A DNA stretch of 63,042 nucleotides, filler included, from Hausera hauseri (lineage: Eukaryota): the NCBI GenBank assembly GCA_046269625.1. It is 11 parts of 11 records of this genome, joined end to end, with 100 filler letters (N's around TTAATTAATTAA, not from the genome) between each part and the next. Parts side by side here need not be neighbours in the genome. Positions count along the whole stretch, not along the records: positions 30,749 to 34,957 come from JBJURY010699994.1; 10 more parts are not named here. The stretch is one strand, 5' to 3'. The translations under genes were made by a program, and so were the position numbers. Numbering within the stretch: position 1 is the stretch's first letter; every line of letters begins with the position of its first letter. This document shows, piece by piece, positions 33,833 through 34,640 of this stretch. The notes under the pieces are model-generated. The model was not told the DNA's origin, did no database searches, and was given only the letters and a program-made list of their open reading frames with translations.

Positions 33833-34290
33833 CTTTCTGACAATTTTTTCTCGACCAGCAGTAAACAGATCTCTGGATCGATACTGAGGTTTCTTTTTGA
33901 CATCGGAATGAACAAAAATCTGGACATATTTGGCGATTATTGATTATTTTTATTGGAGCCCCTTCTTGTTTTACTATCTTTTCCCACTGAACACTTGACG
34001 TATAACAAAGAGATGGATTTGAATCAATTCCTATTCCGCCAGACAAAATTAAACGAAGATTCACCGAACCGATGTACAGCAGATCTGACTTAATGACTAA
34101 TGCGTAATTATACGCTAACGTTTGACCTCAAATAATAACAAGGTTTGGGAAAAATGTTTCGAGAGTCTTCAAATCTCGGACATAATAAATAATTAAGGAA
34201 CCGGTAATTTCTCTCAGCAGTGGAAAACTTTGATTGGAATACAACGTCACCGTGACAAGGTAGAGATTACCTTCAATAAGAGTACAGTTT
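33833..34290 (-). pseudogene. INSR: Insulin/IGF receptor L1 domain exon fragment with one in-frame stop
   Basis: Reads NCTLIEGNL...SFPLLREITGSLIIY.V.DL.TL...FPNLVII*GQTLAYNYALVI...NLRLILSGGIGIDSNPSLCY..SVQWEKI...CPDFC...CWSRKNCQK, then AG|GTAAAA. It is collinear with the insulin receptor L1/CR start. Confidence 0.85.
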
Positions 34291-34640
34291 TTTGTTCGAC
34301 CACTAACCAAACCAAGATCCATAACCAATTCATTTTCATTATTAATAGTATTTACAATTTCTTCCAGCTGGGAAAATTTTTCGTTTAGAAATAAAATTAC
34401 TACATCATCCCGGTTAGCTTTTATAGCTGTATGTAATGGGTGATTGGAATGAAGCTCCAATAATTCTAGGAAAACATAAGCACTGAGACATTGGAAGTCG
34501 AAATAATTGTACGTGTTCCAATTAGAGAAAATAATTTCGCTACAATAGTTCTTCAAACTTTCGGTCTGCAATTTCGTTAAAAGTGAATTTTCACACCTTA
34601 ATTTGAGATATTTCAAATTTTTCTCATTAGCAACCTTATA
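34291..34640 (-). pseudogene. ANKFY1: Rabankyrin-5-like fragment (BTB end/BACK and first ankyrin repeats)
   Basis: LKLRCE...LKNYCSEIIFSNW....DF..LSA.......HPLHTAIKANRDDVVILFLNE..SQL...N......L.MDL.L parallels ANKFY1 (NYCAEIIASHW...DF..MSA...YPLHKAIKVEREDVVFLYLIE..SQL). Confidence 0.75.

Follow-up and report, generated by a model that had tools for sequence, protein, structure and literature searches.

The window, i.e. the whole 63,042-nucleotide stretch of Hausera hauseri DNA that was analysed (filler included), is composed of 11 separate repeat-rich contigs of 4-16 kb chained by 10 N-linkers. The linkers at the contig joins are identical, 100 bases long and have a core that stops all six frames, and any reading across them is an artefact. 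One contig, 30749-34957 (4,209 bases), carries a minus-strand fusion of ankyrin-type and insulin receptor-type sequence adjacent to a Gypsy-type element. No Rfam match was found on this contig, and no second copy of the fusion region was found in the window. Its features, and the linker at which the context of the fusion ends, are listed below.

30749..33430, plus strand: decayed Gypsy-type pol remnant of a high-copy family, with RT, RNase H and integrase (Pfam RVT_1, RT_RNaseH, rve)
33435..33448, plus strand: purine-rich tract and TG, a possible PPT and LTR start; the LTR is absent, short or diverged
33449..33832, minus strand: AT-rich (~25% GC) intron-like DNA beginning at the GTAAAA donor at 33832; it is low-copy from 33569 and includes a short repeat at ~33495-33527
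33833..34295, minus strand: insulin receptor L1 and the start of the cysteine-rich region, predicted to be one flatworm-type exon without its first ~16 codons and acceptor (Pfam, PDB, HMMER, tree)
34128-34130, minus strand: TGA stop in place of the IRG Arg (conserved in 90% of 145 homologues)
34293..34310, minus strand: junction zone (approximate), with no intron and no visible transposon end; bridged by X2 record 16
34296..34637, minus strand: helical region and ankyrin repeat(s), multi-copy, putatively like the BACK-ankyrin region of ANKFY1/Rabankyrin-5 (Ank_5 below cut-off; helices in a low-confidence model)
34638..34721, minus strand: probable retained intron of the ankyrin gene, with a putative acceptor and a GTGAGT donor at 34721 (X1 and X2 contigs, loose ends at 34694)
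34722..34837, minus strand: upstream continuation of the frame, no Pfam match
34838..34957, no strand assigned: high-copy repeat that closes the contig and contains an imperfect hairpin at 34893-34940 (X1 depth 305)
34958..35057, no strand assigned: N-linker between unrelated contigs

Of the words sampled from the stretch, 0.59 occur in public run X1 and 0.11 in public run X2, and the contigs of both runs were matched to it at 80% likeness. X2 comes from another study and carries another organism label. The comparison comprises 966 differences and 1,399 pieces, and the readings below rest on those among the matches listed. Summed contig depth is not equivalent to copy number, and X1 coverage is partial.

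A single minus-strand frame runs from ~34955, at the contig end, to 33828, interrupted by stops at 34800-34802 and 34128-34130, and no frameshift was detected. It is stop-free from 34799 to 34131, passing through ...MDLGLVSGR|TKNCTLIEGNL..., and continues past the TGA at 34128-34130 on to CQK, spanning ~375 codons in all. The sequence-only reading, that one frame leads from ANKFY1-like sequence straight into receptor L1 with no intervening intron, is borne out by the frame as read in the sequence. Its claim of a single stop at IRG was correct for the TGA at the conserved Arg, but missed the further in-frame stop upstream. At the upstream stop, TGG is read in all five X1 contigs spanning the position; these contigs may be other copies. 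Approximately 220 codons upstream of the junction remain in one frame across the probable intron with a single stop, one that is missing from other copies. This gives a hint that the frame has been under selection, which counts against the pseudogene reading favoured below. The in-frame match of the two halves is itself probably chance; it is expected 1 in 3 times for same-strand pieces, and scans notice such joins.

The junction is covered by an X2 contig of 328 bases (record 16; 34235-34562), which differs from the window at 10 positions with no gap and reaches ~60 bases to one side of the junction and 267 to the other. This contig belongs to a different study and organism label, so the junction is real and occurs under both labels, and the possibility of a misassembly raised earlier is largely set aside by an independent run. 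No X1 contig bridging the junction was found among the matches listed in the 1,399 pieces.

The receptor half matches Pfam Recep_L_domain with an E-value of 4.4e-19, over the cut-off of that family. Its best PDB matches are IGF1R and INSR, extending through CQK, with 93 bits for IGF1R against 79.5 bits for the best EGFR-type entry. By sequence it is assigned to the insulin receptor family, nearer to INSR/IGF1R than to EGFR. A HMMER search with the whole chimera against 1.84 billion representatives returned 793 hits at E<=0.001; the best 150 of these were all receptor-type, and none of the 150 covers both halves. Schistocephalus and Schistosoma proteins take the first three places, and the best-hit identity is 44-48% (best 150 of 793). 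In a FastTree phylogeny of the 145 hits that cover the receptor piece, it is sister, on a long branch and with support of 0.84, to eight proteins, seven of which are from named flukes or tapeworms, and the host is accordingly predicted to be a flatworm. It keeps 38 of 43 strongly conserved columns of these 145 homologues, where the median is 40 and flatworm receptors keep 34-38. L2, FnIII, membrane span, kinase and signal peptide were not seen on the contig, which therefore does not hold a functional receptor gene. The fusion frame includes only two Met codons. As signal peptide, membrane span and kinase are absent and the stop cuts L1, the fusion would not be expected to yield a functional protein.

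The receptor piece ends after CQK at a phase 1 donor, AAAG|GTAAAA at 33832. Homologues of this exon were identified at 44 metagenome loci, 32 of them distinct at the 5′ side and nine reaching the CQ end. In five of the nine distinct homologues that reach this end, GT follows one base after CQx, as at 33832; two of the remaining four look spliced and two have a donor a few bases later. The 3′ end of the receptor piece is, on this comparison, predicted to be a genomic exon end, and the proposal that it stops at CQK|GT with a retained genomic donor holds. An extra Cys-containing stretch was seen by eye upstream of the first Cys in 28/32 distinct loci, often just behind an acceptor, and is missing from the fusion. 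Because the fusion is without this upstream exon start, the 5′ end of the receptor piece most likely marks a break within that exon. The TTAG immediately ahead of the junction was considered as an acceptor and ranked low, since homologous exons begin ~20 codons before the first Cys. As an alternative, a whole exon may have been joined at the junction, which is hinted at by a schistosome gene model (P0002) that suggests an intron near there. The junction contig, the donor at 33832 and the donors of the homologues together uphold the earlier description of a DNA-level chimera that has kept a genomic donor.

Receptors of neodermatans (Schistocephalus, Schistosoma, Rodentolepis, Paragonimus, Opisthorchis and Calicophoron) resemble the fragment over L1 and the cysteine-rich region, with best hits of 45-48% identity and the same 3′ exon end. 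The fusion differs from them in consisting of one truncated exon only, with a stop, on a long branch. It also has no mid-exon intron, whereas group member P0071 appears to have one there.

Downstream of the receptor piece, the Gypsy pol remnant is broken in all three frames, with a longest stop-free run of 217 of ~894 codons and 8 stops in the RT match. The PPT-like tract lies behind this plus-strand pol, ~386 bp from the receptor end, so the receptor frame is antisense to the element. The fusion had been placed ~390 bp past a probable Gypsy 3′ LTR start, antisense to it. The purine tract with TG, the distance and the orientation agree with this, but the LTR does not, as family-level depth falls from hundreds to ~9 by 33569. 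An X1 contig (33498-33862, 0 differences, depth 8.4) links 33498 to the receptor exon end. Because the depth has dropped by 33569 and this contig joins 33498 to the exon end, the receptor piece is not inside a family-typical LTR, barring an LTR less than 80% alike, which would be missed. Capture by an LTR retrotransposon, in which introns tend to disappear, does not fit the locus, where depth is ~9 against hundreds in pol, and the donor and intron have been kept. The receptor intron probably carries the Gypsy element as an old antisense passenger, and the simplest order is that the element entered this intron first and that loss of function came later.

Helitron and MULE boundaries were sought and were not found within this contig. 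Neither strand of the 4.2 kb contig, which ends at 34957, has a Helitron end (a GC-rich hairpin, then CTRR and T), and the only repeats around the chimera in 33400-34957 are short and at chance level. Capture mediated by a transposable element, as inferred previously, is supported in part. The multi-copy ankyrin half fits a transposon-linked duplication, whereas capture by the Gypsy is not supported, since the sequence after the putative LTR start is low-copy and the element is far more decayed.

Further elements were observed on other contigs of the window. A second, unrelated Gypsy-type pol remnant (54394-58360, minus strand) is 27% identical to the one beside the fusion. The region 23199-26439 (minus strand, contig 21381-26439) includes long open frames of 486, 105 and >520 codons; two long frames have no useful E-value match in Pfam, PHROGs or NCBIfam, and the 486-codon frame has none in PDB. 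By eye, one frame combines a signal-like start with a membrane span and is envelope glycoprotein-like, and another is exonuclease-like; the region is possibly an endogenous virus or unusual retroelement. An endonuclease VII-like motif and a fragment of a B-family DNA polymerase occur at 60767-61852 (minus strand), which we would liken to Maverick/Polinton or Adintovirus elements. A frame at 59257-59910 (minus strand) contains two hydrophobic stretches, matches 7tm_1 weakly (below cut-off) and is perhaps another host-gene fragment, and broken frames at 1166-3578 are DNA transposase-like by eye. Satellite arrays are present at 15685-21280, 35058-39757, ~3800-13300 and ~45400-50041, the types being a 68-bp unit, a 6-bp unit and two strongly strand-skewed arrays.

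The N-terminal half of the fusion is predicted to derive from coding DNA because none of 20,000 base shuffles matched the stop-free run of 169 codons at 34293-34799. One ankyrin repeat was detected under the Pfam cut-off (Ank_5, E-value 1.7e-4 to 8e-4, ~20-22 bits against a cut-off of 27), together with a match to the ankyrin repeats of EHMT1 (E-value 0.016). Pfam BTB or BACK was not found in this half at E<=10, and no tool gave a FYVE match. A single-sequence structure model contains helices at a pLDDT of 57, at which fold matches are meaningless. The half probably resembles closely the BACK-to-ankyrin region of ANKFY1/Rabankyrin-5. Its coding origin stands, but the ANKFY1-like BACK/ankyrin name given to it was not confirmed, with a single sub-cut-off repeat, no BACK or BTB and no homologue.

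No relatives of the ankyrin half were found among 436 and 214 candidates in the protein collection, nor among pattern-matched contigs from metagenomes (0/186), viruses (0/9) and prokaryotes (0/109), nor in NCBIfam and PHROGs, and 0/9 candidates match a junction-spanning query. These searches were mostly word-based and would miss relatives at 35-40% identity, so they bear weakly on ANKFY1; an origin from a bacterial or viral ankyrin gets no support from them. ANKFY1 peptides in the supplement rows of PMC9010637, PMC9117253 and PMC7801436 come from other regions only, and the supplement material of PMC12529508 that was available contained no ANKFY1 peptide. The order of domains described for ANKFY1/Rabankyrin-5 in PMC514490 and PMC1257465, and in a supplement row of PMC13061254, is BTB, helical region, ankyrin repeats and FYVE. 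The ankyrin half has a helical stretch and then an ankyrin repeat, in the expected order, but would represent at most the N-terminal quarter of the protein, with no BTB, BACK or FYVE match. At the residue level, the likeness is one that we assume to be close.

The ankyrin sequence recurs in other contigs. Nine X1 contigs overlap at 34647, one of which has a depth of 126. Long high-depth contigs (126 in X1, 10.6 in X2) share the ankyrin piece at 34575-34694 and the donor; past 34694 they keep the GTGAGT donor at the spacing seen in the window with different intervening bases, and on the other side of 34575-34694 they appear short of ~63 bases. A possible gene-carrying repeat family, seemingly undescribed, lies behind these contigs. 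Summed X1 depth is ~100-510 over the Gypsy, 4.6-10 over 33569-34273, 21-24 over 34274-34555, 130 over 34556-34696, 16.5 over 34697-34837 and 305 over 34838-34957. The contrast is plain, with a multi-copy ankyrin half and a low-copy receptor half and intron. At a receptor-half depth of 4.6-10, there is no sign that the whole chimera has been amplified.

In a simulation of neutral decay with an assumed indel rate, the probability of acquiring one new stop or none, without a frameshift, was 0.17 at 3% divergence, 0.056 at 5% and 0.003 at 10%. Decay of the chimera is, on this model, probably under ~5% and much below that of the Gypsy. A young chimeric pseudogene is indicated by the two stops, by conservation that is close to normal and by the lack of any detected frameshift.

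The explanation that we favour, and consider reasonably probable, is that a dispersed fragment of an ankyrin gene was joined at the DNA level to a copy of a receptor gene, in frame by chance, and is now a low-copy pseudogene. A genomic fragment of the ankyrin gene, probably ANKFY1, would first have been duplicated to many dispersed copies with its intron included, perhaps inside a putative mobile element, a step that the contigs partly document. One copy would then have been joined ~16 codons inside the L1 exon of a receptor gene copy, either through break repair or through an insertion and a subsequent deletion, and the receptor copy would have brought the donor and an intron already holding the old antisense Gypsy. 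Constraint would have been lost recently, giving the two stops and no detected frameshift that are seen in the sequence. Chimeric pseudogenes can arise from segmental duplication or break repair, and the fusion is like these in its break inside an exon, retained flanking intron, few lesions and repeat-rich setting.

An unlikely alternative is that a single mobile element (Helitron, Pack-type DNA or LTR), with ends outside the 4.2 kb contig, captured the two fragments one after the other. PMC4224331 describes host gene fragments and chimeric protogenes carried by Helitrons in bats and maize, with neutral capture as the null expectation. Helitron cargo as given there typically consists of fragments that lie on the same strand, keep introns and are directly joined, and the fusion likewise consists of DNA-joined, same-strand pieces of unrelated genes with introns kept, one piece being amplified. 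The multi-copy ankyrin half and the high-copy repeat at 34838-34957 are also consistent with such capture. Against it, the receptor half is low-copy, as is its intron, the two genes show no sign of having been amplified together, and the sequence past the PPT-like tract is not shared by the family. Nor were a Helitron-type end, RepHel or terminal repeats around the chimera found on the contig.

A native insulin receptor locus or paralogue may instead have been knocked out by an arriving ankyrin-bearing repeat, leaving a null allele or dead paralogue rather than a moved copy. The receptor half, with its low depth and conservation close to normal, agrees with this. Intronic LTR elements are biased to the antisense orientation, and the old antisense intronic Gypsy fits a native intron. 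Flatworms can carry two receptor genes, according to PMC2844434. Nevertheless, the join is common to two organism labels ~3% apart, which would be hard to reconcile with an essential gene unless a paralogue covers for it, and no further exon lies on the contig; this origin is improbable.

Less probable again is a fused gene specific to this lineage, whose product would be a regulatory transcript or an ankyrin-L1 protein of the cytosol, and whose expression either has ceased or persists in other alleles. It would account for the single frame, ~375 codons long and free of any detected frameshift, for the upstream stop missing from the five X1 contigs (possibly other copies) and for the gap-free junction in X2. 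It is opposed by the stop inside L1, by a disulfide-rich extracellular domain that has no signal peptide and a frame with just two Met codons, and by the lack of an intact fused homologue among the matches listed (best 150 of 793). An assembly chimera, although suggested by the short, repeat-rich unplaced contigs of the window and by the lack of an X1 junction-bridging contig among the matches listed, is very improbable given the gap-free X2 record.

The joining of a dispersed ankyrin-gene fragment to a receptor gene copy is an event of a well-known kind, gene-fragment shuffling, and the gene pair is new. No report of an ANKFY1-receptor pair, or of such chimeras in flatworms, was found in a full-text search of an incomplete literature collection. 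A more speculative outcome, to which we give little weight, is a stop-free newborn gene expressed in other alleles or a sister organism, encoding BACK-ankyrin of Cullin-3-adaptor type plus the L1 domain, which binds ligand in the insulin receptor, and drawn from selected, amplified ANKFY1-derived frames, or else antisense read-through from the Gypsy that gives small RNAs against the receptor. Taeniid cestodes are reported in PMC4558846 to be without the canonical PIWI pathway, and planarians use piRNAs according to PMC6824462; because these groups differ in this respect, the position of the host matters for the small-RNA idea.

As a pseudogene, the fusion is one more case of gene-fragment shuffling, of note for the pair of genes and the flatworm-type lineage. 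The multi-copy, intron-bearing ankyrin fragment suggests that this genome has a gene-capturing repeat that is apparently undescribed. Should there be an allele that is intact or yields small RNAs, the locus would be a new gene or a regulator of insulin signalling seen at its birth.
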